Shown here one piece after another: positions 6,013 to 31,492 of a stretch of 32,000 bases of DNA. The position numbers were made by a program, and so were the translations under genes. Where the stretch lies: contig NZ_FOKT01000002.1 in assembly GCF_900112305.1 (NCBI RefSeq), positions 497,228-529,227 on the forward strand, given 5' to 3'. This stretch comes from Microbulbifer thermotolerans. Its GTDB lineage: Bacteria > Pseudomonadota > Gammaproteobacteria > Pseudomonadales > Cellvibrionaceae. The notes beneath the pieces were generated by a model. It was given only the letters and a program-made list of their open reading frames with translations. It was not told the origin of the DNA and did not search any database. Within the stretch, counting starts at the first letter, position 1. Every line of letters starts with the position of its first letter.

Positions 6013-6633
6013 CTAGATCCGCTCCTTTGGCGCCAACAGGCTGCCGCTTCCAGCTCCGCAGGCGACAATGGACTTCATGGCCGCTTCCACCGTGACCTCG
6101 GGCAAAATCTCCACGCACCCCGCCGGCACATGGTATACAAGCCCGGAAGTGGGCACCGGCGCTGTGGGCACGTAAACGGTGTAATCACCGTTGGGATGGC
6201 GGGAGGTGACGATCGCCGTCACCGACAGCGGGTGGTCCGGGCCGTGAATCCGCACCCTGGCAACTGGTCCCGACAGCACGCCCTCCCCGGCTCCGCCGCC
6301 AATAAACTGCAGCACCAGTTCCTTAATGGTGTTGTAACCGGGCGCCAACCGGCCGAGCCAGTGGTCCAAGTGCCGATGCAACCAGCGCCCCACACTGGTC
6401 TTGACCAAAAGGCCGATCACAAAGCACCCGCCCAACATCAGCACTATCACCGCCAGTTTGGCGAGGGTATCCTTGAAATCTGTGTGCGCCTCCAGCCAGG
6501 CGACAGCGGGCGCCACCAGCTCGCTGATCTGGCCGAACAACCATTGAAACAGCAAAATAAAGATGGCGATGGGCAACACCACCGCCAGCCCCCCGAGAAG
6601 GGTCAACGTCACAAAGGTTTTTACTCTGGTCAT
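6013..6633 (-). CDS. DUF502-domain inner-membrane protein
   Basis: 206 aa with two N-terminal transmembrane segments (LTLLGGLAVVLPIAIFILLF and LAVIVLMLGGCFVIGLLV). These are followed by a conserved PGY..IKE...V...P.P.SG block characteristic of DUF502. Confidence 0.75.
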   Translation of the reverse strand: MTRVKTFVTLTLLGGLAVVLPIAIFILLFQWLFGQISELVAPAVAWLEAHTDFKDTLAKLAVIVLMLGGCFVIGLLVKTSVGRWLHRHLDHWLGRLAPGYNTIKELVLQFIGGGAGEGVLSGPVARVRIHGPDHPLSVTAIVTSRHPNGDYTVYVPTAPVPTSGLVYHVPAGCVEILPEVTVEAAMKSIVACGAGSGSLLAPKERI

Positions 6634-6645
6634 AACTTTCTTCTA

Positions 6646-7930: not shown

Positions 7931-8093
7931 CGCCTTATCCTTGTCTGTGCATGCGGTGCGGCGATTATAGACCTGAGAACTACGTCACAGAAACAAGTAG
8001 ATGACACAATCAAGGGGCGAATACCCTTCCAGCCTCCCTCACCTGTCCCACCGGTAGCGTCCCCGGCACCTGCACGCGCTATACTCCGCCGCC

Positions 8094-11412: not shown

Positions 11413-11488
11413 CCCCCACCGCGCATTGGCAAAAATCACCGCAGCACTACGACCACGGAGCACCGGAGCCATCCGAAGGAGCACAAAC

Positions 11489-12985
11489 ATGAACACCATC
11501 GGCCACCTGATCAATGGCACTACCACCGCCAATGACTCTCGTCAGCAGGAAGTGATGAATCCCTCCACCAGCGCAGTGATCGCCAAAGTCGCCCTGGCCA
11601 GCCGCGCTACCGTGGAAGACGCCATCGCCGCCGCCGAGGCCGCTTATCCCGCCTGGCGGGACACTCCGCCCATCAAGCGCGCACGCATCCTATTTCGCTT
11701 CAAGGAATTGCTGGAAACCAATGCCGACAAGATTTGCGAACTGATCACCCGCGAGCACGGCAAGGTACTGGGCGACGCCATGGGCGAATTGCAGCGCGGC
11801 ATCGAAAATGTCGAGTACGCCTGCGGCATCCCAGAACTGCTAAAGGGCGAACACAGCAGGAACGTCGGACCCGGCATCGATGCCTGGAGCGAATTCCAGC
11901 CCCTGGGCGTCTGCGCCGGTATCACCCCGTTCAACTTTCCCGCCATGGTGCCCCTGTGGATGTGGCCCATGGCCATCGCCTGCGGCAACACCTTCGTACT
12001 CAAGCCCTCCGAGCGGGCTCCCAGTTCCGCGCTGTTTATTGCCCAGCTGGGCCTTGAAGCGGGCATCCCCGCCGGCGTGCTGAACCTGGTCAACGGCGAC
12101 AAAGAAGCGGTGGATACGCTGCTGACGGACCAGCGGATACAGGCGGTCAGCTTCGTGGGCTCCACGCCGGTTGCCGAGTACGTCTACCGCACAGGTACCG
12201 CCAGCGGCAAGCGGGTCCAGGCGTTCGGCGGTGCCAAGAACCATGCGGTGATCATGCCCGACGCCGACTTGGACAACGCGGCCAATGCACTGATGGGCGC
12301 CGCTTACGGCTCTTGCGGCGAGCGCTGCATGGCCATCTCCGTCGCAGTGGCCGTCGGCGACGCCGTCGCCGATGCATTGATTGGGAAACTGAAAGCCCAC
12401 ATCACCAAACTGAAAGTCGGCGACGGCATGGACAACAACAACGATATGGGACCGCTGATCAGCCGCGCCCATCTGGAAAAAATCCGCAGCTACATCGCCA
12501 AGGGCATTGAGGAAGGCGCGGAATTGGTTGTGGATGGGCGTGATCTGAAGGTTACCGGTTTCGAGGATGGCAATTTTCTAGGCGCCTGCCTGTTCGACAA
12601 AGTCAAAGAAGGCATGACGATTCACCGCGACGAAATCTTCGGCCCGGTGCTCTGCGTGATGCGGGTTCGCACCCTGCAAGAGGCGATGGAGATTATCAAC
12701 GCCCACGAATACGGTAACGGTACCTGCATCTTCACCCGCGACGGAGAGGCCGCGCGTTACTTCTCCGACAATATAAAAGTGGGCATGGTGGGTATCAATG
12801 TACCGCTGCCGGTACCCGTGGCCTACCACAGTTTCGGTGGATGGAAACGCTCACTATTCGGCGATCTGCACGCCTATGGCCCTGACTCCGTGCGTTTCTA
12901 CACCAAGCGCAAAGCGGTGACCCAGCGCTGGCCGGCCAGCGGCCTGCGCGAGGGAGCCCAATTCAACTTTCCCAGTAACGACTAA
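11489..12985 (+). CDS. mmsA: CoA-acylating methylmalonate/malonate-semialdehyde dehydrogenase
   Basis: The ATG at 11489 is preceded by AAGGAG. The product starts MNTIGHLINGT and carries ITPFNFPAM, FVLKPSE and the catalytic-Cys context GSCGERCMAISV. The 91-codon upstream extension in the ORF track overlaps the aminotransferase gene and was rejected. Confidence 0.9.
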   Translation: MNTIGHLINGTTTANDSRQQEVMNPSTSAVIAKVALASRATVEDAIAAAEAAYPAWRDTPPIKRARILFRFKELLETNADKICELITREHGKVLGDAMGELQRGIENVEYACGIPELLKGEHSRNVGPGIDAWSEFQPLGVCAGITPFNFPAMVPLWMWPMAIACGNTFVLKPSERAPSSALFIAQLGLEAGIPAGVLNLVNGDKEAVDTLLTDQRIQAVSFVGSTPVAEYVYRTGTASGKRVQAFGGAKNHAVIMPDADLDNAANALMGAAYGSCGERCMAISVAVAVGDAVADALIGKLKAHITKLKVGDGMDNNNDMGPLISRAHLEKIRSYIAKGIEEGAELVVDGRDLKVTGFEDGNFLGACLFDKVKEGMTIHRDEIFGPVLCVMRVRTLQEAMEIINAHEYGNGTCIFTRDGEAARYFSDNIKVGMVGINVPLPVPVAYHSFGGWKRSLFGDLHAYGPDSVRFYTKRKAVTQRWPASGLREGAQFNFPSND

Positions 12986-15309: not shown

Positions 15310-16131
15310 TCAGAATCGATATCCGATACCCAAGTTGTATACCCAGGAATCCAGTTCAATGTCTGTTCTCGCCGCATTAATAACGGTAGTGGGAGAAAAA
15401 TAAAAATTGGGAGCCTGATAGTGCAAATCGGTTTGCACATCTGAATCCAGGTACTGGACAGCCGCATTGACCAGCCAGTTACTCTCGCGGCCCAGCATAA
15501 TATCGATCCCTATTTGACCAGCCCAGCCCCAATCATCTTCCAGATACAGTTTTGCCGGCCCTATGGCTCCGGCCACTTCTGCCAGATAGTCATTGGCCGC
15601 AGTTCGAAAGCGCACACTATCGTAATCGGTATAGTGCGCTCCGATGCCCACGTAGGGCTGCACCCAGGACTCCTTGCAAACAGGGAACCAGTTGAACATC
15701 AGTGTTGCCGAGCGGCGGTCGATACTGCCGGCGCGAATTTTGCTGACGCCAAAATCCTGCACAAAAGTGGCATCCAGCCCCGTTAAATCCAGATCGTGCT
15801 CCGCTTTTCCGATATAGCCCAGTTCTACGGACATATGGTCAATCGGCATAAACCCCACAGAGAAATTCCAGGTTGTCTCTCCATCCAGGTCGTATCTGAG
15901 CCCATCAAAAAACGGTTGCAGATCCCGGTCGTAGCGCCACTTACCTGAGTCATCGTCGAGATCGACATAGGAGGCGCCAATGCGAAGCATCACAGTACCC
16001 GCCTCATACACCGCCGGAGGAGCTGAAGGTATTGGTGCTGCATAGCCGGACGGGCCGGCCAGTACCGGTTCAGCACTGACCGCCGCGGCTACAGCAATCG
16101 CCATAGGTGTCAGAATGCGCGTCAATTTCAT
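15310..16131 (-). CDS. OmpW/AlkL-family outer-membrane beta-barrel protein, paralog A
   Basis: 273 aa with a signal peptide (MKLTRILTPMAIAVAAAVSA). It shows alternating beta-strand patterning, and its C-terminus WVYNLGIGYRF matches the OmpW terminal motif (..W.....GYRF). Confidence 0.8.
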   Translation of the reverse strand: MKLTRILTPMAIAVAAAVSAEPVLAGPSGYAAPIPSAPPAVYEAGTVMLRIGASYVDLDDDSGKWRYDRDLQPFFDGLRYDLDGETTWNFSVGFMPIDHMSVELGYIGKAEHDLDLTGLDATFVQDFGVSKIRAGSIDRRSATLMFNWFPVCKESWVQPYVGIGAHYTDYDSVRFRTAANDYLAEVAGAIGPAKLYLEDDWGWAGQIGIDIMLGRESNWLVNAAVQYLDSDVQTDLHYQAPNFYFSPTTVINAARTDIELDSWVYNLGIGYRF

Positions 16132-16518: not shown

Positions 16519-17316
16519 TCAAAAATCAAATTTGTATCCGATGGACAAGTTGAACACCCACGGATTGTAAAGGTAATCACCGGAATAAGATTCCAGGAAG
16601 AAATCGGTATTGGTTGAGGCGTTATTGCGGACGGTGAATCCCAAATCGGTCTCCGAATCCACGTAGATTGCAGCCATATTCACCAGCCACGCACTATCGT
16701 GGCCAAAGTTAATATCGGCACCAATCTGCCAAGTGTATCCCCAGGAATTTCCCAGAGACATGCGAGAAGTGAGGCCAAGGTCATTGAGGTCCGCACGTGC
16801 AACCCCTCTGAAGCTCTCACCGCCAAAGTCCGTGTAATTAATACCAACACCGACATAGGGCTGGAACATGCAGGATGGATCCAGCGGATACCAGTTGACA
16901 TAAGCCATGCTCATATCGGCTTCAAATTTAGCGAGGTTCCGCAGTGCCACATCGTCGAATCCGGCTACTGTTACGAATCCTTTGCTGTTGCCGCCAACAT
17001 GATCATCGCCGTCAACATACATCAACTCGAATCCGAAATGATCGTGAGGCTTCCAGACACCGCTGATATTCCAGCCCCACTCATCATCCGGGTCTATAGT
17101 TGCCCGAAAAGCGTCGAAGTACTGTAGCGAATCATCGACAAAACTTACTTGCTCCGAATTCGGATGAATATAAGAGGCACCGATCCGGATAATAAACTCC
17201 TGAGTTTTAGGCGGAGGCGGTGCGGGTATATAACCCGAAGGACCGGCTAACGCATTAGTAGAAACCGCCAGTGCCAGAGGTGCCAGAACCGGGGTCAGAA
17301 TACGCATCATCTTCAT
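16519..17316 (-). CDS. OmpW/AlkL-family outer-membrane beta-barrel protein, paralog B
   Basis: Start set at the ATG at 17316 (MKMMRILTPVLAPLALAVSTNALA, a signal peptide), with GGAG 8 nt upstream. The C-terminus is PWVFNLSIGYKFDF. The post-signal motif AGPSGY plus a Pro-rich linker is shared with paralog A. Confidence 0.8.
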   Translation of the reverse strand: MKMMRILTPVLAPLALAVSTNALAGPSGYIPAPPPPKTQEFIIRIGASYIHPNSEQVSFVDDSLQYFDAFRATIDPDDEWGWNISGVWKPHDHFGFELMYVDGDDHVGGNSKGFVTVAGFDDVALRNLAKFEADMSMAYVNWYPLDPSCMFQPYVGVGINYTDFGGESFRGVARADLNDLGLTSRMSLGNSWGYTWQIGADINFGHDSAWLVNMAAIYVDSETDLGFTVRNNASTNTDFFLESYSGDYLYNPWVFNLSIGYKFDF

Positions 17317-17627
17317 TGAGGTAACTCCATTGATTTTCAGCGGATTAAACAGCAATCAGCCCAATCAATGGTCAGTTTAGTCGCGGGGTAATACAGCTGT
17401 AGAAAAAACAACCAATTATTGGCGTCAAAAAAAAAGTCACGGAGATTTTGGCGCAAGAAAAGTTCTTTTGGCACGCATAGTCACTTGCCATACTCCCTGC
17501 CCTAAGGCTGTGAAACCAGCGACAGCGTTCGCACGAACTATGCAGAGGGCCCTAATTCCATCGGAAAAGAAGCGAACGCCATACGTGGAAAAATATGCCG
17601 ACGTGAAAGGAACAGCCCGATAACAAA

Positions 17628-19128: not shown

Positions 19129-20931
19129 TTACTGACTCTGTAACCAATTGCGCCAACCGCCATAGTGGGTGATTTCTTCGGCACCCTTGAGGCCAGACGC
19201 CTCGCAGATAAACCCGCTCACCCAACGGCCATCGGCCAATTCCACCTTGCCGATACCCAGGGGGGCCGGGATGGCGGCGACGAAGCTGCCCAGTTCTGCG
19301 GTGGGAATAGACCAGACTTCCACTTCGATACCTCTGCCGCCGCTTTCATCGCGCATAAGTCCCGGTCGCAACGGCGGACCTCCGGCGAGGGCGAACAGCC
19401 GGTAACAAGCCGCGGTTTGGGCGCGGGCCTTCAGAACAGCCCCGCGCTCAGTCAGCTGCCAGTTCAGAGGCAATTCTTGCAAGTGGGCACCGCAAACTAA
19501 CAGATCTGTGCGTTCGCTTCCGCCGCAGTCTGGCGCCGTTGTGGGCGCAGCTTCTGTGCCCAGAGCACCTTGAGGAAGCGGCAATATCTGGCGTATCCGA
19601 TTACCGATGGATAGCAGTCTGCGATCGCTGAAGTGATCCCCCACCAGGGTCACGCCAAACGGCAAACCTCGCGTTGTAAAGGCCGTGGGAATGGCAACCG
19701 CCGCCATATCCAACAAATTCATGAAGTTGGTGTAATAACCCAACTGGGAATTGAAGCGCACCGGCTCGGCCAGCATTTCGTCTACGCGGAAGAGACGTCC
19801 CGCCGTCGGGGTGAGCAGACAGTCCAGCCCTTCCATCTGCTCGAAACAGGCCAGGCGCAGCTCCTGCAAGCGGTATTGGGCTCGGAACAGGTCTGTGGCA
19901 GGTGGCGTCTTGCCCGGCTCAATGATGGCGCGCACCACTGGATGGATCGCTTCGGGATCACTGTTTAACAGGGACTCGCAGGCGATATAGCGTTCGGCCA
20001 CCCAGGGGCCTTCATAGAGCAGCCGCGCCGCCTCATCGAAGGGGGTGAAGTCAACGGTTACCAGTTCGATGCCCGCGCCAGTCAGTGCCGCCAGGGTATC
20101 CGCATAGGCCCGCGCATAGTGGTCAGACCCAAAGAATTTCAGCTGTTCCTGAGGCAAAACGCCGATTCGCAACGGACCGCTTCGCAGGCCGTACTGGCGG
20201 GCGGCGTTATCGAACCCGTTGCGACGACTATAACCGTCGCGGGCATCAAAACCTTCAGCGCAGGCCAAAACCGTATTGGCGTCATCAGTGTCCAAAGTGA
20301 AAATGCTGATGCAATCCAGCGACCGGCAAGCGGGCACCAGCCCCGTGGACGACAAGAGTCCCCGTGTGGGCTTGAGGCCAACCAGATTGTTGAAGCAGGC
20401 GGGGACCCGGCCAGAGCCCGCAGTGTCCGTGCCCAAGCTGAAGCTGGCCAGCCCCAGCGCCACCGCTACAGCAGAGCCGGAGCTGGAACCTCCGGAGATG
20501 TAATCCGAATCAAAGGCGTTGCGGCATGGTCCATAAGGTGACCGGGTGCCGTTCAGCCCGGTGGCAAACTGGTCCAGGTTAGTCTTGCCGACGGGAATGG
20601 CGCCGGCATCGATCAGCTGCTGCACTACCTGTGCCGAGCTTTCCGGTGTGTAGGCAAAAGTTGGGCAGGCCGCGGTGGTGGGTATCCCGGCCAGATCAAT
20701 GTTGTCCTTGATGGCAAAGGGAATACCCCACAGGGGGTGGCTGGCCGGGTCCTTCTGTGCCAGGGCCTCCAGCCAGGGTTGCTGCTCCTCGGCCGTCAGC
20801 AGGTGAATCCAGATATTGTGCGCCTCATATTCAGCTGTACGGCGGCGGATATCCGCCATCAGCTGCGCCGGTGTCAGGCGGCCTTCGGCAAAGGCACGCT
20901 GAAGCGCAGAAATACTCATGTCAATGCTCAT
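19129..20931 (-). CDS. allophanate hydrolase (amidase-signature N-domain + C-terminal domain)
   Basis: 600 aa with the amidase signature GGSSSGSAVAVA and FAIKDNIDLAG. Its start overlaps the carboxylase stop (ATGA, 20928-20931). Confidence 0.9.
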   Translation of the reverse strand: MSIDMSISALQRAFAEGRLTPAQLMADIRRRTAEYEAHNIWIHLLTAEEQQPWLEALAQKDPASHPLWGIPFAIKDNIDLAGIPTTAACPTFAYTPESSAQVVQQLIDAGAIPVGKTNLDQFATGLNGTRSPYGPCRNAFDSDYISGGSSSGSAVAVALGLASFSLGTDTAGSGRVPACFNNLVGLKPTRGLLSSTGLVPACRSLDCISIFTLDTDDANTVLACAEGFDARDGYSRRNGFDNAARQYGLRSGPLRIGVLPQEQLKFFGSDHYARAYADTLAALTGAGIELVTVDFTPFDEAARLLYEGPWVAERYIACESLLNSDPEAIHPVVRAIIEPGKTPPATDLFRAQYRLQELRLACFEQMEGLDCLLTPTAGRLFRVDEMLAEPVRFNSQLGYYTNFMNLLDMAAVAIPTAFTTRGLPFGVTLVGDHFSDRRLLSIGNRIRQILPLPQGALGTEAAPTTAPDCGGSERTDLLVCGAHLQELPLNWQLTERGAVLKARAQTAACYRLFALAGGPPLRPGLMRDESGGRGIEVEVWSIPTAELGSFVAAIPAPLGIGKVELADGRWVSGFICEASGLKGAEEITHYGGWRNWLQSQ

Positions 20932-23900
20932 ACCTTGTCCTCCCCGGTTGTCAGTGTGGCTTCATCCTCCAGCACCACCAGCGCCTGACCGGCGCTGACC
21001 CGCCCGCCTTGGTTGGAGAGCAGCTGGCTGACGACGCCGCTACAGGGGGCGCAGATGGGGATTTCCATTTTCATGGACTCAAGAATCATCAGCAGCTGTC
21101 CGGCTTCCACCGTGTCACCGGCCCGGACTTCCGTCTGCCAGACGCTGCCGGACACAGGGCTGTCCACCAGAGTGGCGTCCTCTGGCCAGCTCTGCTCAAT
21201 GGATTCGGCTTCTGCCTCCTCCACTTCAAAGTTGAACTGGCCGTTGGCATGCCAACGTTCCAGCTCTTCCTGAAAGGCCTCGTTGCGCTGTTCAAGGAAT
21301 GTCTGGATGTCACCGGCGTTGTCCGCAACAAACTGCTCGTATTCCGCCAGGGAGAAATGGCTGTCCTCGATCTTCAACGGGTAGCGACCTTGCGGGAAGT
21401 CGCGCCGAATCTGCTGCAGCTCCTCATGGCTGACTTCGTAAAAACGTATCTGATCGAAAAAACGCAGCAGCCAGGGTTTTTCAAAAGCATCGGTGCGCCG
21501 GTAGCGATTCCACATCTGCAGGGTGCGGCCGACAAACTGGTAGCCACCGGGCCCTTCCATGCCGTACACGCAGAGATAGGAGCCGCCAATCCCCACGGAG
21601 TTCTCCGCGGTCCAGGTGCGCGCCGGGTTGTATTTGGTAGTCACCAGGCGGTGGCGCGGGTCTACCGGTGTGGCCACCGGTGCCCCCAGGTAGACATCCC
21701 CCAGCCCCATCACCATATAGGAAGCGTTGAATACGATCTGTTTGACCTGGTCAATGCTGTCCAGGCCGTTGATGCGACGGATAAACTCCAAATTACTTGG
21801 ACACCAGGGAGCATTCCTGCGCACGCTCTGTTCGTATTTCTCAATAGCCAGCCGGCAGGCCGCGTCATCCCAGGAAAGTGGCAGGTGGACAATACGCGAC
21901 GGCACACTCAGTTGCGCCAGCTGCTGTGACAGCTCGCGCTCGCCTTTCTCTATATGGGCCAGCAGATGTTTATGGCTGAGCTCCTGAGTGTCGAAGTGGA
22001 TCTGCAGGGAACGGATACCCGGGGTCAGCTCGCGCAACCCGGGCAAGGGATGCTGCTGCAGCCACTGCATCAGCGCATGGGCGCGAAAGCGCAGGCGGAT
22101 ATCCAGCGCCTGGGGGCCGTACTCCACCAACAGGAAATGGTCCCCGGCAGCGCGGCAGACGATCTCGTCGCCAAAAGTCTCAGCGTCAAATCGGGCCAGT
22201 ATTGGGGTGTCCGGCTCCACCGGCTGCCAGCTGCACGTCTGTGCCTGCAGTGTTTCGATCGCCCGGTTCTGAGCCGCTTCCAGGGCCACGGCCTGTTCCA
22301 GGCTGACCGGCACAAAGCGCACCTTGTCCCCGGCCCGCAACTGGCCCAGTTTCCACAGGTCCGCCGTGATCACCGTGGCCGGACAGACAAAGCCGCCCAG
22401 GGAAGGACCGTCCGGCCCCAGAATCACCGGCATGTCGCCAGTAAAATCCACGGTGCCGAAGGCGTAGGCGTTGTCGTGGATATTGGAGGGATGCAAACCG
22501 GCTTCTCCCCCATCGCGGCGCGCCCATTGCGGCTTGGGGCCGATCAGACGCACACCGGTGCGGCTGGAGTTGTAGTGGATCTCCCAATCCGTATCGAAGA
22601 AGGTGCGCATATCCTCATCGGTAAAGAAGTCCGGAGCCCCGTGGGGGCCGTAGATCACGCGCAGCTCCCAGTGATGGTCCAGAACAGGCCGCAGCGCCTC
22701 CGCGACCCCCCGCACGGGAACAGAGCCGGGGTCAGCGGCCGCATCGAGATGCAGTACATCACCGGTACGCAGAGCGCGGCCATTGTGGCCGCCGAACTGA
22801 CCGAGGGTGAAGGTGGAGCGGGAGTTCAGGTAACCGGGACACTGAATACCGCCACACACAGCCAGGTAGGCCCGCGCCCCCGCCCGGACTCGCCCCAGCT
22901 GCAGAGTCTGTCCCGCCGCCACCGGAACTACCTGCCAGCCCGGTATTGCCTGTCCGTCCAGGGTGGCATCGATGGTGGCGCCCGTGAGGGCAATCCGGGT
23001 ATCACAGGCAAAGGTCAGCGTGGGTCCCTGCAGGGTGATCTCCAGTCCCGCTGCACTGTCCGGGTTACCCAGCAATCGGTTGGCCAGGCGGAAGGAGCGG
23101 CTGTCGAAAGGACCGGAGGGTGGCACGCCCACATCCCAGTGCCCCTGCCGCCCCGGAAAATCCTGGATGGTGGTCTGAGTGCCCCCCTGAAGCACATCGA
23201 TCCGGGCCGGCTGATAGCGGAAGCTGTTCAGGTAGCGAGTGGTGACCTGGCCCCGGGCCAGGGTATCGTCACGGCTGAGCGCACGCAGGTAGTCCAGGTT
23301 GGTTTCGCTGCCGTACAGTTCGGTGGCATCCAGTGTCTGTTGCAGTTTTTCCAATGCTGCGGGGCGATCGCCGGCGCGGACAATGACCTTGGCCAGCATG
23401 GGGTCAAAGAAAGGAGGAACCTCGATGCCGGATTCGATCCAGTGGTCAATCCGCACACCTTCCCCCTCGGGAAAGGACACATGGCTCAGCAGGCCGGCAC
23501 AGGGCTGGAAATCGCGCCAGGGATCTTCCGCATAGAGGCGCACCTGGATAGCGTGCCCCGTCGGTTTCAGCTGTGCCCGCTGCGCCTCCAGATCCGGTGC
23601 TTCGCCAGCGGCGATACGCAGCATCCATTCCACCAAATCAACGCCGTACACCTCCTCGGTCACCCCGTGCTCCACCTGCAGCCGGGTGTTGACCTCAAGA
23701 AAGTAGAAATCCCCGCTGTCAGCGTCGTAGATGAACTCCACCGTGCCCGCGTTGCGATACTCAACACTGGCCAGCAGCTTCTCTGCGGTACTGTGCAGGC
23801 GGGTGCGCACCGCTTCACTCAGATTGGGCGCTGGGCACTCCTCCACCACCTTTTGGTTGCGGCGCTGGCTGGAGCAGTCCCGCTCACCGATGGCCAGGGC

Positions 23901-24557
23901 TCTGCCGGAGCCGTCGCCCACCACCTGGACTTCGATATGGCGGGCACGGGCAATGAACTTCTCCAAAAAAACACCGTCATCGGCAAAGTTGTTGGCGCCC
24001 AGGCGTTTGACAGAATCAAAGGCCGCATCCAGCTCTGCGACGTCATGGCATAACTGCATACCGATGCCGCCACCACCGGCGGTGCTCTTGAGCATAACCG
24101 GATAACCGATGCGTTGTGTTTCGGCGCGGGCCGCGGCCAGATCGGTCAACAGCTCCGAGCCCGGCAGCAGGGGCACACCGGCGGCCTCCGCCAGGGCACG
24201 GGCCCGGTGCTTCAGACCGAACGCCTGCATCTGCTCAGCGGTGGGGCCGATAAAGGTGATGCCCGCCGCCTCACAGCGTTCCACAAAGGCGGCATTTTCA
24301 CTGAGGAATCCGTAACCGGGGTGTATGGCCTGAGCGCCGCTGTCGGCGGCGATCTCCAGCAGGCGCTCGACATTCAGATAGGTATCAGCCGCAGCGCCTT
24401 CCCCCAGACTGTAGGCTTCATCGGCGTGACGCACATGCAGACTGTCGGCATCGCACTCGGCATAAACTGCCACCGAGGCGATACCCATACGCTGCAGCGT
24501 GCGAATCACGCGGGTTGCAATAGCGCCGCGGTTGGCAATCAGAACCTTGGTAAACAT
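20928..24557 (-). CDS. biotin-dependent urea-carboxylase-family enzyme, predicted guanidine carboxylase
   Basis: Start set at the ATG at 24557 (MFTKVLIANRGAIA, the canonical biotin-carboxylase N-terminus). The central part has KipA/KipI-like carboxyltransferase domains. The C-terminus has the biotinyl motif ESMKMEI. The guanidine assignment rests on the riboswitch context and the DUF1989 gene pair. Confidence 0.9.
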   Translation of the reverse strand: MFTKVLIANRGAIATRVIRTLQRMGIASVAVYAECDADSLHVRHADEAYSLGEGAAADTYLNVERLLEIAADSGAQAIHPGYGFLSENAAFVERCEAAGITFIGPTAEQMQAFGLKHRARALAEAAGVPLLPGSELLTDLAAARAETQRIGYPVMLKSTAGGGGIGMQLCHDVAELDAAFDSVKRLGANNFADDGVFLEKFIARARHIEVQVVGDGSGRALAIGERDCSSQRRNQKVVEECPAPNLSEAVRTRLHSTAEKLLASVEYRNAGTVEFIYDADSGDFYFLEVNTRLQVEHGVTEEVYGVDLVEWMLRIAAGEAPDLEAQRAQLKPTGHAIQVRLYAEDPWRDFQPCAGLLSHVSFPEGEGVRIDHWIESGIEVPPFFDPMLAKVIVRAGDRPAALEKLQQTLDATELYGSETNLDYLRALSRDDTLARGQVTTRYLNSFRYQPARIDVLQGGTQTTIQDFPGRQGHWDVGVPPSGPFDSRSFRLANRLLGNPDSAAGLEITLQGPTLTFACDTRIALTGATIDATLDGQAIPGWQVVPVAAGQTLQLGRVRAGARAYLAVCGGIQCPGYLNSRSTFTLGQFGGHNGRALRTGDVLHLDAAADPGSVPVRGVAEALRPVLDHHWELRVIYGPHGAPDFFTDEDMRTFFDTDWEIHYNSSRTGVRLIGPKPQWARRDGGEAGLHPSNIHDNAYAFGTVDFTGDMPVILGPDGPSLGGFVCPATVITADLWKLGQLRAGDKVRFVPVSLEQAVALEAAQNRAIETLQAQTCSWQPVEPDTPILARFDAETFGDEIVCRAAGDHFLLVEYGPQALDIRLRFRAHALMQWLQQHPLPGLRELTPGIRSLQIHFDTQELSHKHLLAHIEKGERELSQQLAQLSVPSRIVHLPLSWDDAACRLAIEKYEQSVRRNAPWCPSNLEFIRRINGLDSIDQVKQIVFNASYMVMGLGDVYLGAPVATPVDPRHRLVTTKYNPARTWTAENSVGIGGSYLCVYGMEGPGGYQFVGRTLQMWNRYRRTDAFEKPWLLRFFDQIRFYEVSHEELQQIRRDFPQGRYPLKIEDSHFSLAEYEQFVADNAGDIQTFLEQRNEAFQEELERWHANGQFNFEVEEAEAESIEQSWPEDATLVDSPVSGSVWQTEVRAGDTVEAGQLLMILESMKMEIPICAPCSGVVSQLLSNQGGRVSAGQALVVLEDEATLTTGEDKV

Positions 24558-24569
24558 GGTGGTATCCCG

Positions 24570-24614
24570 CACGGGCCGTCCCGTGAACTTCTATACGACA
24601 GCGGTCGTCCGCTG
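24570..24614 (-). promoter_or_regulatory. guanidine-II (mini-ykkC) riboswitch candidate, internal to the operon
   Basis: Minus-strand RNA reads CAGCGG-ACGA-CCGCUG, then a 13-nt linker, then CACGGG-ACGG-CCCGUG, then CGGGAUACCACC-AUG. These are two 6-bp hairpins, each with an ACGR tetraloop closed by GG/CC. The second ends 12 nt before the carboxylase start codon. Confidence 0.75.
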
Positions 24615-24685: not shown

Positions 24686-25330
24686 TTATTCGTTATCCCA
24701 CACCAGCAGTTCAATCGGCGTGGGGTTGTAGCCGTTGCAGGGGTTGTTTAGCTGTGGACAGTTGGAGATCAGTACCACCACATCCATCAGAGCCGTCAGC
24801 TCCACATATTTGCCGGGGGCCGAGATGCCGTCCTCGAAGGTGAGTCCGCCCTCTTCGGTGACCGGAACATTCATGAAGAAATTGATGTTGTGGCCGATGT
24901 CGCGCTTGCTGATGCCATATTCCGGGTGCTCGGCGATGGCCAGCATCCAACTGTCCCTGCACGCGTGCATGCAACGCTTTTCCAGGGCGTAACGCACTGT
25001 GTTGCTTTCGGTGGCGCAGGCGCCGCCCAGGGTATCGTGGCGGCCACAAGTATCAGCCACGATTTCCAGCATCGGGCGGTTTTCGCTGGAGCGCAGTACG
25101 CTGCCGGTGGTCAGGTAGAGGTTGCCCTGCTCGCGGATGGTATCCATGGCACTGTAGCGTTCGGCAGGGTCGGCCGCACTGTAAAAGAGCGTATCCGCCG
25201 CTTGGTTGCCCTCCAGATCCAGGATGCGCAATGTCTGTCCCTCACGGACAATACCGATAAAGTAATCCCCAGCATCCACCTTGGTACGGGAAACCGCCTG
25301 CTCTGCCTGACGTGTACTTTCAGTCAACAT
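24686..25330 (-). CDS. DUF1989 urea-carboxylase-associated protein; probable carboxyguanidine deiminase subunit
   Basis: 214 aa and paralogous to the next gene (shared C...HDT/ET.CG and N.F.NV patterns). The position, a DUF1989 pair just upstream of the carboxylase, is the conserved arrangement. Confidence 0.8.
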
Positions 25331-25340
25331 ATTCGCCTCC

Positions 25341-26057
25341 TTATTTGCCCAGGTGATACAAGGCGTTGTTCTGGAAACCGCGCCGGTTTTCCGGGCGGAA
25401 ATTCAGGCAGTAATCGTCGTCGGACACGGGATCTGCTTCACCCAGATCGATACGGACCGGCCTTTGGGGATAGGTGGGCTCCTGGCACAGAGGGTGCGGG
25501 CAGTTGTGCAGCACCACCAGGGTGTCCATCTCGAAACGCAGGGTCAGATGGCTGCCCGGCTGGCTGTGTCCCTCCACCAGTTGCATACGACCTTCAGCGT
25601 CGGCGGCCACCTTGCTGAACCAGTTGATATTGGCCGCCAGGTCCGCACATCCGAGACCGTACTTAGCCAGCTCGACAAGAAAGGCGTCGTGACCATTCTG
25701 GTGCCAGTTATTGCGGTCGTGCTGATAATCACGCACACCCCAGCGCCCGGTGACCTGATCGGCGCGGATATTGCCGCAGACGGTTTCGTGCCAACCCAGG
25801 CTGTCCTCAACAATGGAGGCAAAAATACGTCCCATATCGGAGTAGAGACAGTTGCCCCGGGTGAGCTTAAAGGTATGTTGGCACTTGAGCGTATCTGGTG
25901 CGTTGTAGCGCTCCAGCAGGTTCTCCGGATTGTAGAACAGCATGCCCACATTGGCGCCGCCCTCGAGATCGGTCAGGCGCATCAGGGTGCCTTTGCGCAT
26001 GCGCAGCGACCAGTGGCCACCCGCCGGAATTTCGGTGGTGTATTCAATGCTTTTCAT
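25341..26057 (-). CDS. DUF1989 urea-carboxylase-associated protein; probable carboxyguanidine deiminase subunit
   Basis: 238 aa. It is the second DUF1989 paralog. Its start overlaps the stop of the ABC ATPase gene (26054-26057). Confidence 0.8.
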
Positions 26058-26839
26058 AATGCCTTTTCTGTTTCTCTTGCAGTGAGCGTGAGATCGCGAT
26101 CAATTTTCTTAAGCTTTCTGCCGTCCATCTGACCCACCGGCAGGTCGTAAGTAATCGTGGCGCCATAGGCATCAGGCGCCTGGGGGTCGAGACGGGTCTT
26201 GTCAAACACCCACAACCGGGTACCTAAATAAAACCCCTCGGTGAGGTCATGGGTAACCATAAACACAGTGAGCTCGTATTCGCGCCAAAGACGCAACACG
26301 AGATCATGCATATCGGCCCGAATACCGGGGTCCAGTGCGCCGAAAGGTTCATCCAGGAGCAGAATACGCGGCTGTCCCAACAATGCCTGAGCAATGGCGA
26401 GACGTTGTCGCATTCCCCCTGAAAGCTCCCCCGGATAAAGCGATTCCGCATTTCCCAAACCGACTTCCGCCAGTATTGCCCGCGCTTCATCCCGCGCCTG
26501 CTGGCGGGCCGCCCCAAACAACAAACCGGTCACGCCGGGGCGCCCGAAACCGCGGGCCGCCATGACGTTTTCCAGCACTGACATGTGAGGAAAAACCGAG
26601 TACTGCTGAAAAACAATGCCTCGATCCGGACCCGGCTCGTCGGGGATCGGTTTTCCGTCTAGCAGAAGTTCACCACTACTGGCGGTCTCTGTCCCCAATA
26701 GCATTTTAAGAAAGGTGCTCTTACCACAGCCGGACGCCCCGACCAGCGTAATAAATTCACCTTCTTCAACCCGCAGATTGAGTCTTTCCAAAACAACCTT
26801 GTCACCGTATTTCTTCCACAGATTGCGCGCCTCTATCAT
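26054..26839 (-). CDS. ABC transporter ATP-binding protein (NitT/TauT family, urea-carboxylase-region type)
   Basis: It has Walker A (GASGCGKST), the ABC signature (LSGGMRQR) and Walker B (ILLLDEPF). It shares 1 nt with the permease stop (TAATG). Confidence 0.9.
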   Translation of the reverse strand: MIEARNLWKKYGDKVVLERLNLRVEEGEFITLVGASGCGKSTFLKMLLGTETASSGELLLDGKPIPDEPGPDRGIVFQQYSVFPHMSVLENVMAARGFGRPGVTGLLFGAARQQARDEARAILAEVGLGNAESLYPGELSGGMRQRLAIAQALLGQPRILLLDEPFGALDPGIRADMHDLVLRLWREYELTVFMVTHDLTEGFYLGTRLWVFDKTRLDPQAPDAYGATITYDLPVGQMDGRKLKKIDRDLTLTARETEKAL

Positions 26840-27657
26840 TACTGCACTCCTTTACTCTGCCAGGGGAAGAGACGGCGACTGACCCAGGCCAGAACCGAAT
26901 CGATCAAAAAGGCCAACACAGTGATCCAGGCCACATAAGGCAATATCACGTCCATGGCCATATAGCGACGGACCAGAAAAATCCGGTAGCCGAGGCCATC
27001 AGTGGAGGCAATGGCTTCCGCCGCAATCAAGAACAACCAGCCGGCGCCCAGCGACAGGCGCACGGCGTCAATCAGTCTCGGCATTAACTGCGGAAGTAAT
27101 ACGCGGAAGATAATTTGGCTGGTATTGGCACCGAGGGTTTGTGCCTTTACCAGCTGTTCACGGGGAATTTCCAGTGTTCTGCGCTGGATATCACGCGCGA
27201 TAAAGGGTGTGATCCCAATGGCGATCAACGCCACTTTGGATACTTCCCCCAAACCGAAGACAATAAACAGCACCGGCAAAAGAGCCAGCGGGGGAATCAG
27301 CGATACCACAGTGAGCAGTGGACTGGCCACCGCAGAAACGCTGGGCAATGCACCGGTCAGTAAACCCAGCACTAAACCGACAAACGCTGCGATCAATACA
27401 CCCAGCCCCAGACGGGTCAGGCTACTGGTGGTATCCCCCCAAAATAAATATTCCCCCGTGCGCTTGCTCGGTTCAAACGCCATACGCTGGATAGCGTCGC
27501 CAATCTGACTGAAGCCCGGCAACAGTTTGTCACTGGGGTTTTCGGCCAGGCGTGCATCCGACGCAACAATGTAAAGAATCACCAGCAATACAAAAGGCAG
27601 CAAACCGAACATCATGCGCGTTGCCGGTGCCGGCGTCAGGTTAATAAATCGTTTCAT
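26839..27657 (-). CDS. ABC transporter permease (NitT/TauT family)
   Basis: 272 aa and polytopic, with a BPD-type permease loop (AQTLGANTSQIIFRVLLPQLMP). Confidence 0.9.
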   Translation of the reverse strand: MKRFINLTPAPATRMMFGLLPFVLLVILYIVASDARLAENPSDKLLPGFSQIGDAIQRMAFEPSKRTGEYLFWGDTTSSLTRLGLGVLIAAFVGLVLGLLTGALPSVSAVASPLLTVVSLIPPLALLPVLFIVFGLGEVSKVALIAIGITPFIARDIQRRTLEIPREQLVKAQTLGANTSQIIFRVLLPQLMPRLIDAVRLSLGAGWLFLIAAEAIASTDGLGYRIFLVRRYMAMDVILPYVAWITVLAFLIDSVLAWVSRRLFPWQSKGVQ

Positions 27658-27735: not shown

Positions 27736-28776
27736 TCAGAGATCACCATCAACGGCCATCTGCAACCAGGCTGGGTTGAAACGCAGCTTGATATTGTTGC
27801 GATCGCCATAGATACCGGCAGGTGTTTCGATACCGATAAAACCGGCATCTGGTGCGCCTTCCCCAAGCAGACCGTGCTCGAAGGAGAACTCGGCCACTTT
27901 TTGCATCGTGGTGCGCAGGTCTGGACTGTTGGTAAATTTCAAGGCCGCTTCAGGGGTGTAGAACATCGCGGTAGTGGCAAGCTGTGCTTCATAGCCTGCC
28001 AAATCAGTACCTGCGGCCTGAGCCATAAAGGTTTTTGCTGCCTTAGCGGTGGCATCCTTCGCCTGCATAATTTCCGTTAATTCGAACCAGGCTCCGGTCA
28101 AAGCTTTACCGAGCTCGGGGCTTTTCTCCAGAACTTCGGTTTTAACCACCAACATATCGAGGATTTCCCCGGGGATTTGGGACGAATCAAATACTTGGTT
28201 TGCGCCCGGCATGGACAAAATCTCACCCAACGGCGGATTCCAGGTCGCCACCGCCGTAACTTCCGGCGTTCCATAGACCGCGACCATATCAGCATCAGAA
28301 GTGTTGACCACCTGAATATCCCGCTCACTCAAGCCGACCGTTTCCAGAGCGCGGGCGAGGAAGTAGTGGGATACACTGAGCTCGACCAGATTCACTTTCT
28401 GGCCTTTAATATCCGCCAATGACGTTTTGTCTTTGAGCACAATGCCATCATTGCCGTTGGAAAAGTCATTGATAATCAAGACGGTGTTATCGACACCACC
28501 TGCTGCGGGAATGGTCAGCGTGTCCATGTTGGTTATGGAACAGGCATCGAATTCGCCGACCGTGTACTGATTGATCGATTCGATATAGTCATTGAACTGC
28601 ACAACTTCGATATCGATGTCGTACTTATCGGCCCATTTCTGCACAATCCCCTGCTCGACACCATATGCCCATGGCATCCAGCCGGCATAGATGGACCAGC
28701 ACACTTTGAAAGTATCGCGGGCGGAAGCTGTCGACGACAGCGTCAATGCAAGTAGAAGAATGGAAAGTCGCTTCAT
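27736..28776 (-). CDS. periplasmic substrate-binding protein of the ABC transporter (urea-carboxylase-region type; predicted guanidine-binding)
   Basis: Start set at the ATG at 28776 (MKRLSILLLALTLSSTASA, a signal peptide), with GAGAGGTG upstream. It shows NMT1/TauA-like periplasmic binding-protein patterning. Confidence 0.85.
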   Translation of the reverse strand: MKRLSILLLALTLSSTASARDTFKVCWSIYAGWMPWAYGVEQGIVQKWADKYDIDIEVVQFNDYIESINQYTVGEFDACSITNMDTLTIPAAGGVDNTVLIINDFSNGNDGIVLKDKTSLADIKGQKVNLVELSVSHYFLARALETVGLSERDIQVVNTSDADMVAVYGTPEVTAVATWNPPLGEILSMPGANQVFDSSQIPGEILDMLVVKTEVLEKSPELGKALTGAWFELTEIMQAKDATAKAAKTFMAQAAGTDLAGYEAQLATTAMFYTPEAALKFTNSPDLRTTMQKVAEFSFEHGLLGEGAPDAGFIGIETPAGIYGDRNNIKLRFNPAWLQMAVDGDL

Positions 28777-28839
28777 GGCGCACCTCTCAGTTGGCTTCGG
28801 TCGGTTGCTCACGGAGTACTCCCGGCATCACGCCTGTAG

Positions 28840-28934
28840 TCCTCCCGGGCTTTTATCCCGCCGTGTAACCTTTCACTGAAAGGTCGAGTGCTCTCGGACC
28901 AGTCACCGTTATAAAACAGCCGGAACCCTAGCGC
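28840..28934 (-). promoter_or_regulatory. guanidine-I riboswitch (ykkC-yxkD motif, subtype 1) aptamer
   Basis: Minus-strand RNA reads GCGCUAGGGUUCCGGCUGUUUUAUAACGGUGACUGGUCCGAGAGCACUCGACCUUUCAGUGAAAGGUUACACGGCGGGAUAAAAGCCCGGGAGGAC. All three hallmark blocks are present in the right order: CUAGGGUUCCG, GGUCCGAGAG and ACACGGCGGGAUAAAAGCCCGGGAG. The aptamer lies about 65 nt upstream of the first gene's ATG. Confidence 0.9.
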
Positions 28935-28989
28935 TCCATTTTGCGAATTGTCTGTCACGTAGTGTCAGGAGTACGGACACAAATAAACA

Positions 28990-29443: not shown

Positions 29444-29458
29444 AAGTATTCCCCCCAA

Positions 29459-29506
29459 CCGGGACGACCCGGCCGGCATCCGCCGGAACCGCTCTGGACG
29501 GCCAGA
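29459..29506 (+). promoter_or_regulatory. guanidine-II (mini-ykkC) riboswitch candidate in the oxygenase leader
   Basis: CCGGG-ACGA-CCCGG (29459-29472), then a 20-nt linker, then TCTGG-ACGG-CCAGA (29493-29506). Both ACGR loops are closed by GG/CC. They are followed by CCUUU..AAAGG pairing potential over the AAGGAG ribosome-binding site (29524-29529) and the ATG at 29538. Confidence 0.75.
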
Positions 29507-29537
29507 AACCTTTTTATTGCACAAAGGAGACTGGAGC

Positions 29538-30563
29538 ATGAGCAAACCCACCCGCACCTTTGACCACATCCCTGTTGTCGATATCAGCGGCCTTTATTCC
29601 GATAAATTGGCAGATCGGCAGCAAGTGGCCAAACAAATCGCTGATGCAGCCACCAACGTGGGCTTCCTGTACATTACGGGCCACAGAATTCCACAGTCGT
29701 TGATCGATGCCCTGCTAATCCGCACCAAGGAATTCTTCGCCCGCCCTCACCGGGAAAAAATGCGCTACTACATCGGCAATTCATCCAACCATAGCGGTTA
29801 TGTCCCCGAAGGCGAAGAGCAGTTTTACGGTGGGAAAATCGATCACAAAGAAGCCTATGACATCAATAATGATCTTGGCCATCTGAGCCAGCAAGGGCCA
29901 ATGATAGGCCCGACCCAATGGCCGGATATGGCTGGTTTTAAAGAGGATGTCAGCGCTTATTACCAGGCTGCGTTAAATTTAGGTCAGTTACTCTTCCGGG
30001 GCTTTGCGCTTGCACTCGACCTGCCGGAAGATACCTTTGACGATAAAGTCAAAAACCCTCCCAGCCAGCTTCGACTGATCCATTACCCTTACAACCCCGA
30101 TGCTCAGGACCGGGAGGGCATCGGTGCTCATACAGATTACGAGTGCTTTACCCTGCTATTACCAACTACCGATGGCTTGGAAGTTCTAAACGATAACGGA
30201 GAATGGATTGATGCGCCCGTAATTCCTGGGAGCTTTGTTGTCAATATCGGCGATATGATGGAAATACTCAGTAATGGCCGTTTTATCGCCACCTCACATA
30301 GAGTCCGCAAAGTAAAAGAAGAGCGCTATTCTTTCCCATTGTTTTGCAGTTGTGACTACGACACGATCATTGAACCTCTCGTCGATCCTGCTCCCGGAAT
30401 TAAGCCTGGGACCTATCAACCCATGTGCTGTGGAGATCATTTACTCGCTCAAACCATGCATACGTTTCACTACTTGAAGGAGCGGGTAGCAAAAGGCGAG
30501 TTGCAATTCCCAGATTCCTCGGCCGATGCATCATCCTTCGGCAAACTGCGGGAGGTTTTATAA
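29538..30563 (+). CDS. 2-oxoglutarate/Fe(II)-dependent oxygenase (isopenicillin-N-synthase / ethylene-forming-enzyme-like family)
   Basis: Start set at the ATG at 29538 (AAGGAG upstream). The N-terminal DIOX_N-like region reads IPVVDISGL...GFLYITGHRI. The facial triad is GIGAHTDYE (H-x-D) plus SHRV, and the 2OG-binding Arg-x-Ser is RYSF. The SGYVPEGEE block resembles EFE's SGYVASGEE. Confidence 0.85.
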   Translation: MSKPTRTFDHIPVVDISGLYSDKLADRQQVAKQIADAATNVGFLYITGHRIPQSLIDALLIRTKEFFARPHREKMRYYIGNSSNHSGYVPEGEEQFYGGKIDHKEAYDINNDLGHLSQQGPMIGPTQWPDMAGFKEDVSAYYQAALNLGQLLFRGFALALDLPEDTFDDKVKNPPSQLRLIHYPYNPDAQDREGIGAHTDYECFTLLLPTTDGLEVLNDNGEWIDAPVIPGSFVVNIGDMMEILSNGRFIATSHRVRKVKEERYSFPLFCSCDYDTIIEPLVDPAPGIKPGTYQPMCCGDHLLAQTMHTFHYLKERVAKGELQFPDSSADASSFGKLREVL

Positions 30564-30565
30564 TC

Positions 30566-31492
30566 ATGCACCTTGCCGAGCTCACTTCTGTAATCAATTC
30601 ACCCACTGCTAACACTGTGCCGCGCTGGATGCGCGGCTGCTTTCAGCGGCGCAGTATCAGTTTTGCCAACGGCCAGACGGATACAGATACCCGCGTATTT
30701 TGGCTGCAGTCTAACCTTCTGACCATTGACCTGCGTTTACCGGTCACCGCACAGCAGGAAAAAGAAGGCGACGATATTCAAAAAAAAGCAGATTACGAAG
30801 GTTGGTATGCGCATGCCGACTGGGATGGAAAACAACTTCAGTGGCGTGGTGGTGCCACTTATCAGTTGCACAATCGCTGGCCGGAACCGGCGATTTTACA
30901 GCGCATCGGCAATTGCATGATGGAATTTGCCCCGAGTGGTATTTATGTCGAGGATTGGCGGTTACTTTCAGATCAACCTGGGCCACTCATTGGACTGGAG
31001 CTGATCAGTGAGACAGACCTCAGCAGCGGCACAACGTCTCCGCGCAAGGGGGCACTGATTATCTGCGGCCGGCATGCCGGACTGGTAATCGACCGCCCCC
31101 ACCCGATCAGCGATAGTGGAGGCCTGTTAAAGCAACGATTGACGAATCTACAGATTGATGAAAGCGAACGGAGCAATCTGTTGGACTTTGAAACTTCAGT
31201 GGCTTTGGGATCGCTGTCTGAAGGGTTCACCGTACAGCACAGCCTGCATAAATACCGCTTGCAACAACCCCTGCTTTCTCTGACCGGGTTTGAGCTCGAT
31301 GCAAAATCGGGTTACCTGCGCCAGCGCACAGAAGACAACGGCAAAGCAGTAGAGCGGCTCTTTCGTATTGATTGTTGCGAAATGGAATTTCCCTTTACCC
31401 CGTGTACACCGTCGTCAGAGGATAGCCTCGAGTGGTTCCAGCGGGAGGCACCGACTCTGACGCGCTATACCCGTGTGCTTTATCAGAATTGA
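30566..31492 (+). CDS. hypothetical protein, no recognisable family (308 aa), translationally coupled to the oxygenase
   Basis: Start set at the ATG at 30566, 2 nt after the oxygenase TAA, with GGGAGG 10 nt upstream. It has no signal peptide or transmembrane segment and no motif I can place. The 47-codon upstream extension in the ORF track overlaps the oxygenase and was rejected. Confidence 0.6.
   Translation: MHLAELTSVINSPTANTVPRWMRGCFQRRSISFANGQTDTDTRVFWLQSNLLTIDLRLPVTAQQEKEGDDIQKKADYEGWYAHADWDGKQLQWRGGATYQLHNRWPEPAILQRIGNCMMEFAPSGIYVEDWRLLSDQPGPLIGLELISETDLSSGTTSPRKGALIICGRHAGLVIDRPHPISDSGGLLKQRLTNLQIDESERSNLLDFETSVALGSLSEGFTVQHSLHKYRLQQPLLSLTGFELDAKSGYLRQRTEDNGKAVERLFRIDCCEMEFPFTPCTPSSEDSLEWFQREAPTLTRYTRVLYQN

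Follow-up and report, generated by a model that had tools for sequence, protein, structure and literature searches.

In 2025, a two-step enzyme system for the demethylation of methylguanidine was reported, known from only a few genera of halophiles (Sinn et al., Nat Commun 2025, PMC12508155). The guanidine carboxylase operon of Vreelandella boliviensis, which is under guanidine-I and guanidine-II riboswitches, was found to hold two extra genes, encoding MgdH and MgdL, and both proteins have been characterised biochemically (PMC12508155). MgdH is a 2-oxoglutarate (2OG)/Fe(II) dioxygenase that hydroxylates methylguanidine with a KM of 0.16 mM and a kcat of about 20 s-1, and MgdL, formerly annotated as a hypothetical protein, is the lyase that completes the removal of the methyl group (PMC12508155). 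Here, we describe a related gene pair in a stretch of 32,000 nucleotides (nt) from Microbulbifer thermotolerans (contig NZ_FOKT01000002.1, positions 497,228 to 529,227; hereafter the window, in whose coordinates positions are given). The pair consists of a gene for a predicted methylguanidine hydroxylase of 341 amino acids (aa) (mgdH-like, 29538–30563, plus strand) and a gene for a 308-aa protein (30566–31492, plus strand), which is the subject of this analysis and a predicted N-(hydroxymethyl)guanidine lyase. With a rough probability of 0.75, we regard this protein as the lyase half of a two-enzyme methylguanidine demethylase.

Residues D49 and R51 of V. boliviensis MgdL were shown to be essential by mutagenesis, mutation of this dyad abolishing catalysis, and in the beta-barrel model of the same authors the guanidinium group is bound by D112, E126, and a cation-pi Trp (PMC12508155). 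MgdH was fully active without MgdL, and MgdL added separately acted catalytically; hydroxymethyl intermediates of N,N-dimethylguanidine were not accepted by the lyase (PMC12508155). The V. boliviensis guanidine-II element bound guanidine and methylguanidine equally but not dimethylguanidine, whereas guanidine-I rejects methylguanidine (PMC12508155). The peptide-amidating lyase PAL was named by Sinn et al. as the sole comparable activity, with no sequence homology (PMC12508155). The authors collected homologues of MgdL with HMMER, requiring E ≤ 0.001 and an identity to MgdL of 30% or more (PMC12508155). No further paper mentioning MgdL was found in the literature searched. For the comparisons below, the MgdL sequence (UniProt A0A265DXW6) was taken from Supplementary Data 1 of PMC12508155, and the MgdH sequence was taken from its genomic locus (L082).

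The 308-aa protein has the N-terminus MHLAELTSVINSPTANTVPRW, a mass of 35.0 kDa, and an acidic pI of 5.45. Searches of Pfam (E ≤ 1), NCBIfam (E ≤ 1), and PDB sequences (E ≤ 10) gave no match, and searches of these three collections were also empty for MgdL and its relatives of intermediate length. The label “DUF3445 domain-containing protein” on the UniRef cluster of MgdL was not reproduced by a Pfam scan and was not used. An earlier note on this DNA, made from the sequence alone, had called the protein an orphan with no recognisable domain and had proposed Pfam or profile searches. That description holds for the curated domain libraries, Pfam included; however, profile–profile comparison ties the protein to the characterised lyase MgdL. 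BLASTP aligned the two proteins with 25% identity over 124 aa (E 2e-5). When the profile of the long family, i.e., of proteins of the window type, was compared with the MgdL-family profile in hhalign, a probability of 98.1% (E 9.5e-14) was obtained over 205 columns covering MgdL residues 6–225, and comparison of the profile with the single MgdL sequence gave 96.7% (E 4e-10). For the wider superfamily, an exhaustive hmmsearch with the long-family profile (E ≤ 1e-3) returned 568 clusters (clustered at 50% identity), and the matches graded continuously into proteins of 230–290 aa. The top 59 clusters (E ≤ 1e-30) were mostly of 290–330 aa, with some shorter partial sequences in addition, and many of the further matches listed had 230–290 aa and aligned to profile positions of about 14–250. 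On these sequence comparisons, the 308-aa protein is a remote homologue of MgdL.

Residues of the active site were compared in an L-INS-i alignment of 120 sequences, namely 47 long, 53 mid, and 20 short (MgdL-type) forms. The catalytic D49 of MgdL corresponded to D55 of the window protein (Asp in 119 of the 120 sequences) and R51 to R57 (118/120). Both residues were invariant in the 47 long forms and stood opposite D49 and R51 in every alignment made. E126 of MgdL corresponded to E120 (119/120), and D112 to E107, a position occupied by Glu in 46 of the 47 long forms, by Asp or Glu in 50 of the 53 mid forms, and by Asp in all 20 short forms (acidic in 116/120). The tryptophans W40, W99, and W137 of MgdL (W46, W93, and W131 in the window protein) were conserved, as were Y133 and E135 (Y127 and E129). 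We therefore consider D55 and R57 to be candidate catalytic residues and E107, E120, W46, W93, and W131 candidate substrate-binding residues. The absence of any catalytic motif, as assumed from the sequence earlier, is contradicted by the presence of the Asp-x-Arg dyad and of the substrate-binding residues of MgdL.

The open reading frame (ORF) starts with an ATG at 30566, two nucleotides after the oxygenase stop codon TAA (30561–30563), and its stop codon ends at 31492. A Shine–Dalgarno sequence, GGGAGG, could be read at 30550–30555 (plus strand) inside the 3' end of the oxygenase gene, and similar GGAGG-type motifs precede the orthologous starts in related loci. The location of the ORF and its tight coupling to the oxygenase gene, as first described, were confirmed, with exact coordinates. 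The highest 19-residue Kyte–Doolittle mean of the protein was 0.88; therefore, it has no transmembrane segment or hydrophobic signal peptide, as had also been stated. An identical protein (100%) is deposited as hypothetical protein OQJ46_06635 of M. thermotolerans, and the protein database search yielded 198 homologues, with relatives in 285 species-representative genomes. Across 47 long-form sequences, each 44–73% identical to the window protein, 39 columns were invariant. The AlphaFold2 model had a pLDDT (predicted local distance difference test) value of 93.5 and a predicted template modelling (TM) score of 0.92. ORF 30566–31492 is certainly a genuine and widely conserved gene.

The partner enzyme has the architecture of MgdH, with the Pfam domains DIOX_N (PF14226, 5e-28) and 2OG-FeII_Oxy (PF03171, 5e-24), and shares 53% identity with V. 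boliviensis MgdH over 333 aa (E 3e-122), compared with about 40% identity to two paralogous DIOX_N oxygenases of another cluster. Context was counted in 80 genome loci that were fetched. In about 74 of them, the gene directly upstream of the long form was MgdH-like (51–74% identical to that of the window), so that the co-occurrence with the upstream oxygenase, which the earlier note had proposed to check, was found to be nearly general. The gap between the oxygenase stop and the following start had a median of 1 nt and was at most 9 nt in 62 of 68 cases, with 21 ATGA overlaps. A homologue of the window-type substrate-binding protein directly followed the long-form gene in about 40 loci, and guanidine carboxylase pathway genes were present within 8 kb of the module in about 20. 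Guanidino-nitrogen metabolism, to which the earlier note had pointed, was the right place to look for the function. The AT-richer composition of the gene had been read as a hint of co-acquisition with the oxygenase. The GC content was 53.0% in the ORF, 49.6% in the oxygenase gene, 52.2–55.0% in the adjacent transporter genes, 62.4% in the carboxylase gene, and 57.7% in the window. Thus, the hint is weak: the difference amounts to a few percent and lies within the range of the neighbouring operon genes (52.2–62.4%), and the substrate-binding-protein gene (52.2%) does not differ from the ORF. That the two genes travel together is shown better by their conserved adjacency and by the short median gap.

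A guanidine-II (mini-ykkC)-type aptamer with a long linker was located upstream of the oxygenase gene at 29456–29506 on the plus strand (Rfam RF01068, 26.3 bits, E 0.0043 in a search of 800 nt). The hallmark of guanidine-II, two ACGR-tetraloop hairpins closed by G-C pairs, is present in the form of P1 (CCGGG-ACGA-CCCGG, 29459–29472) and P2 (UCUGG-ACGG-CCAGA, 29493–29506), and the 20-nt linker contains a further hairpin (29473–29486). At the Rfam gathering threshold, equivalent elements upstream of the oxygenase genes were not called in eight related loci. Of 74 related loci, 68 had two hairpins with ACGR loops in the same place upstream of the oxygenase orthologue, and 62 of 73 upstream regions contained two or more copies of the sequence GGACGRCC, the background frequency of which was 0.094 per kb per strand. 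The stems showed covariation: 90.1% of the cells were paired, 7 of 12 pairs had changed on both sides, none of 500 shuffles reached the observed values, and only 23–54% of the cells were paired in slid controls. Across the loci, the linkers between the hairpin windows ranged from 7 to 74 nt, and the alignment of the window element to the Rfam model had inserted linker bases, which are the likely reason for its low score. The reality of this putative guanidine-II-type element is thus strongly supported despite the sub-threshold score. The earlier description of the oxygenase gene as riboswitch-controlled has a match below threshold in Rfam itself and draws its strong support from the comparative data.

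A Shine–Dalgarno sequence of the oxygenase gene, AAGGAG, could be read at 29524–29529 (plus strand); the fold predicted without ligand would sequester it. In the minimum free energy structure without ligand, P1 is kept, the arms of P2 enter alternative pairings around the start codon, and CCUUU pairs with AAAGG of the Shine–Dalgarno region (z = -2.1); this predicted fold fits a translational ON switch. The P2 hairpin followed by AACCUUUUUA (29493–29515) is terminator-like by a simple scan, and its CCUUU is the predicted anti-Shine–Dalgarno sequence; control at this element may be translational, transcriptional, or both. Since the V. boliviensis guanidine-II element binds methylguanidine and guanidine-I rejects it (PMC12508155), it would make sense for a methylguanidine demethylase to be preceded by a guanidine-II element as its sensor. 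In Psychromonas arctica (L042), a full guanidine-I riboswitch (6622–6719, 89 bits) was observed in tandem with long-linker guanidine-II-type hairpins (about 6875–6920) upstream of an mgdH-like gene. That gene is the first of an operon that runs on through the long-form gene, the genes of the transporter, cgdAB, a further guanidine-II element, and the gene for the carboxylase.

The AlphaFold2 model of the 308-aa protein is nearly all beta, with C-terminal helices and a lipocalin-like barrel. This beta-rich, barrel-containing predicted fold is consistent with the beta-barrel model that was published for MgdL. Structure prediction and a Foldseek comparison, both of which had been suggested earlier, gave a confident model; however, no PDB entry was matched at E ≤ 1e-3, and the only likenesses were partial ones to lipocalin-like barrels, from which no function could be assigned. 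One barrel of the model superposes partly on lipocalin-like/calycin barrels (PDB 4qrl, 5byp, and 3ge2), with a target-normalised TM-score of 0.59–0.67 and a Foldseek probability of 1.00, whereas the E values were 0.02–0.04, the identity was 8–12%, about 120–140 of the 308 residues were matched, and there is no functional link. The long clade has about 65 extra C-terminal residues (about 243–308), which the mid and short forms lack; in the model, they form strands 250–257 and 260–275 and helices 285–298.

From the homology, the conserved residues, the arrangement and coupling of the genes, and the conserved RNA structure, we infer the substrate, the catalysis, and the regulatory logic as follows. 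The MgdH-like dioxygenase would hydroxylate the methyl group of methylguanidine with O2 and 2-oxoglutarate, giving the unusually stable hemiaminal N-(hydroxymethyl)guanidine. The 308-aa protein would hold the guanidinium group of this product in a beta-barrel pocket through E107, E120, and conserved Trp residues and would cleave the hemiaminal to guanidine and formaldehyde, with D55 acting as a base on the hydroxyl and R57 as a proton donor to the leaving nitrogen. The two genes would be expressed as one translationally coupled unit, the guanidine-II riboswitch freeing the ribosome-binding site in the presence of guanidine or methylguanidine. The released guanidine would be both the ligand of the divergent guanidine-I riboswitch and the substrate of a route through the carboxylase, CgdAB, and allophanate hydrolase to ammonium. 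As a dedicated lyase that speeds the decay of an intermediate hydroxylated at an N-C group by the oxygenase acting before it, the 308-aa protein would be a functional analogue of PAL, although the sequences are unrelated. PAL is a metal-dependent beta-propeller enzyme of animals.

The window protein agreed with MgdL in all testable features except for the 30% identity criterion of the authors and the size and architecture. The two proteins are homologous over nearly the full length of MgdL and share the Asp-x-Arg dyad in a DxRLP motif, a YVE[DH]W motif, and the acidic and Trp residues of the pocket. Both are encoded immediately after an MgdH-type dioxygenase, in a guanidine-riboswitch regulon with the guanidine carboxylase pathway. 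However, the identity is about 23%, D112 is replaced by Glu, several residues invariant in the short clade have been lost in the long clade, and the window protein has 308 rather than 250 aa, with a C-terminal beta-hairpin and helices. In addition, the window pair is separate, divergently transcribed, and provided with its own guanidine-II riboswitch, whereas the V. boliviensis pair is located inside the carboxylase operon.

Several of the results weigh against the assignment to methylguanidine demethylation. In a neighbour-joining tree, the 74 oxygenases paired with long forms made up a clade of their own, from which MgdH and three other partners of short forms were excluded. The window pair is therefore a sister system of MgdH/MgdL rather than a strict orthologue, and its substrate, which is a prediction for the oxygenase as well, could differ. 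The identity between long and short lyases ranged from 16.5 to 29.1% (median 23%), which is under the authors' 30% cut-off, and the long-form motifs YVEDW, GNCM, and IDLRLP were absent from their 150-sequence alignment (Supplementary Data 1). The 308-aa protein is 58 aa longer than MgdL (250 aa) and carries a clade-specific C-terminal subdomain; it thus lies outside the size of the MgdL family (about 220–250 aa, no extra domains). The 26.3 bits of the element at 29456–29506 are below the Rfam gathering score of 32. Finally, pairwise profile alignments set D112 of MgdL opposite an invariant arginine, R113, and the pairing with E107 appeared only in larger alignments with intermediate sequences. 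We treat the pairing with R113 as a probable local misalignment; however, it remains a caveat, and the match of the pocket residues is alignment-dependent. A replacement of D112 by R113, which would imply a changed charge of the substrate, was considered and dropped because alignments with intermediate sequences pair D112 with the conserved E107.

The divergence of the two partners was also compared. Among pairs of long-form systems whose oxygenases were 45–60% identical, the median identity was 56% for the oxygenases and 45% for the lyases, whereas in long–short pairs with an oxygenase identity of 45–60% the median lyase identity was 23%. Divergence of the lyases therefore exceeds that of the oxygenases. 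A recent displacement of short MgdL by a paralogue was rejected as an explanation, since the oxygenases divide along the same long/short line in the neighbour-joining tree and an old split of the whole pair fits better.

The alternative that survives best, although we consider it unlikely, is that the pair performs the same chemistry on another N-methylated guanidino substrate, e.g., on hydroxymethyl intermediates derived from N,N-dimethylguanidine or on a substituted methylguanidine, the C-terminal extension reshaping the pocket or its entrance. The separate clade of the long-context oxygenases speaks for this reading, as does a lyase only about 23% identical to MgdL with an extra subdomain of about 65 aa. 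Short-form invariants are altered in the long forms as well: R101 is variable, D104 is changed to Ser, P107 to Leu, and W46 to Phe or Leu. The clustering of a mid-length relative with PhyH, two DIOX_N oxygenases, a DDAH/ADI-family enzyme, and a Rieske oxygenase suggests that the superfamily serves further guanidino substrates. However, all four residues implicated in catalysis and guanidinium binding are conserved, and the oxygenase is much closer to MgdH than to its paralogues. Regulation would be by a guanidine-II riboswitch, and that of V. boliviensis binds guanidine and methylguanidine but not dimethylguanidine; the module is adjacent to or embedded in operons for the degradation of plain guanidine in about 20 loci.

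It is considerably less probable that the 308-aa protein is a non-catalytic partner, either a subunit that stabilises or regulates the oxygenase by binding, as a chaperone, or as a scaffold, or else a lipocalin-like ligand carrier. Tight translational coupling is typical of stoichiometric partners, and the sole structural likeness in the PDB, itself partial, is to small lipocalin-like barrels, which are mostly binding proteins. The Asp-x-Arg dyad, the mutation of which abolishes catalysis in MgdL, is nevertheless invariant in all 47 long forms and nearly so in the superfamily. V. boliviensis MgdH is fully active without MgdL, which is itself catalytic when added separately (PMC12508155), and one genome (L028) has a long form with no oxygenase gene inside 8 kb. 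A spurious or untranslated ORF, to which the lack of a curated domain match might point, is already refuted by the 198 database homologues and the relatives in 285 species, the conserved N-terminus and start position with a Shine–Dalgarno sequence upstream, the pLDDT of 93.5, and the 39 invariant columns across 47 sequences.

The pair lies beside a guanidine operon. The whole operon of V. boliviensis is present on the minus strand of the window, gene for gene, with 50–78% identity; the Pfam families of its genes were taken from the V. boliviensis counterparts. It is headed by a guanidine-I riboswitch (28840–28942; Rfam RF00442, 95.9 bits, gathering score 63), which is divergent from the pair and is followed by ABC transporter genes for a substrate-binding protein (27736–28812), a permease (26839–27657), and an ATPase (26054–26839). 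Two DUF1989/CgdAB-like genes are located at 25341–26057 and 24686–25330; these and the transporter genes are 60–78% identical to their counterparts. A canonical guanidine-II riboswitch (24571–24614; RF01068, 32.5 bits, gathering score 32) precedes the gene for a guanidine (urea-type) carboxylase of 1214 aa (20928–24572, 63% identity), and an allophanate-hydrolase-like amidase of 600 aa is encoded at 19129–20931 (50% identity). The GTG start of the carboxylase ORF (24572), a mechanical call, overlaps the 3' end of the guanidine-II aptamer, and the true start is probably located slightly further downstream.

The chemistry of MgdH and MgdL has been known since 2025; what is new here is an uncharacterised long-form sister clade with its own predicted riboswitch-controlled operon. 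The finding overturns nothing established and extends a new pathway to many genera. The long clade was detected in at least 285 species, including members of Pseudomonas, Cellvibrionaceae, Halieaceae, Thalassolituus, Psychrobacter, Colwellia, Variovorax, and Methylotenera, and it is commoner in databases than the characterised clade (198 versus 48 matches in equivalent searches). The extension of the system to so many species suggests that methylguanidine is a commoner environmental nitrogen source than assumed. In addition, a testable annotation becomes available for a protein family unrecognised by Pfam and NCBIfam, and a class of long-linker guanidine-II riboswitches missed by the Rfam threshold becomes apparent. 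The arrangement suggests a cascade, in which methylguanidine or guanidine would induce the demethylase via guanidine-II and the released guanidine would then induce uptake and degradation via guanidine-I.

Mid-length members of the superfamily (254–263 aa) were observed in other oxygenase or guanidine-linked contexts (L085, 1737–7827; L086, 794–1916; L087, 4970–6780; L088, 1545–3355). One of their genes follows PhyH and two DIOX_N 2OG oxygenase genes and precedes genes of a DDAH/ADI-family enzyme and a Rieske oxygenase, another follows an SMR (Gdx-like) transporter gene, and a third follows the gene of an FA_desaturase-type di-iron enzyme with a LysR regulator. For the mid form P0221, the contig was too short to inform on context. 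These observations hint at hydroxylases as partners throughout the superfamily.

In proteins of 493–524 aa, the C-terminus of long-form MgdL is extended by a second orphan domain (about 180 aa; motifs AGRSFAYHL and CLGCLYLYP), which also occurs as a separate gene between the long-form and substrate-binding-protein genes in Marinobacter and Haliea. Its occurrences were at L001 7727–8263, L052 8969–9481, L065 2253–2771, L068 8969–9481, and L081 8969–9478 and in proteins P0047, P0051, P0059, P0118, and P0120. The domain gave no match in Pfam, NCBIfam, or PDB sequences and is absent from the window, and an AlphaFold2 prediction of the 493-aa fusion from only five sequences reached a pLDDT of 40, with no usable fold. 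The module may thereby have a third component. As a tentative and rather doubtful generalisation, hemiaminal (carbinolamine) lyases could make up a broader superfamily, of which the long form would be the main and widespread version, paired with 2OG dioxygenases, FA_desaturase-type di-iron enzymes, and Rieske systems, with the C-terminal subdomain adding a property that MgdL lacks and the domain of about 180 aa acting as a third component. If so, the added property might be, for example, docking on the oxygenase, by which the hemiaminal and formaldehyde would be channelled, or the acceptance of intermediates derived from dimethylguanidine, which V. boliviensis MgdL rejects.

Some loci departed from the common arrangement. 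In Oxalobacteraceae bacterium CAVE-383 (L028), the long-form gene (7977–8945) is divergent from the guanidine carboxylase operon and is followed by a biotin-synthase-like ORF, and no MgdH-like oxygenase is present in the 17-kb locus; L029, L054, and L072 were likewise without an adjacent oxygenase match. A metagenome-assembled genome (L033) has both a long-form gene (8001–8969) with its oxygenase and, about 3 kb downstream, a short MgdL-like gene (12165–12848), the product of which is 31% identical to V. boliviensis MgdL and which directly precedes a substrate-binding-protein gene. Pseudomonas-like loci with mgdH, long-form mgdL, and the substrate-binding-protein gene were found in assemblies labelled as an actinobacterium (Gordonia sp. 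IEGM753, L034) and as Bacteroidota (a Crocinitomicaceae metagenome-assembled genome, L080). The riboswitch hairpins of L034 were identical to those of most Pseudomonas loci, and contamination, mis-binning, or a recent transfer is suggested by the two loci.

No formaldehyde-detoxification genes were found among the further large ORFs scanned in the window. Two tandem OmpW-family genes (15310–16131 and 16519–17355, minus strand) are located a few kb beyond the guanidine operon, as is a pair of genes for a class-III aminotransferase and an aldehyde dehydrogenase (10078–12985, plus strand).

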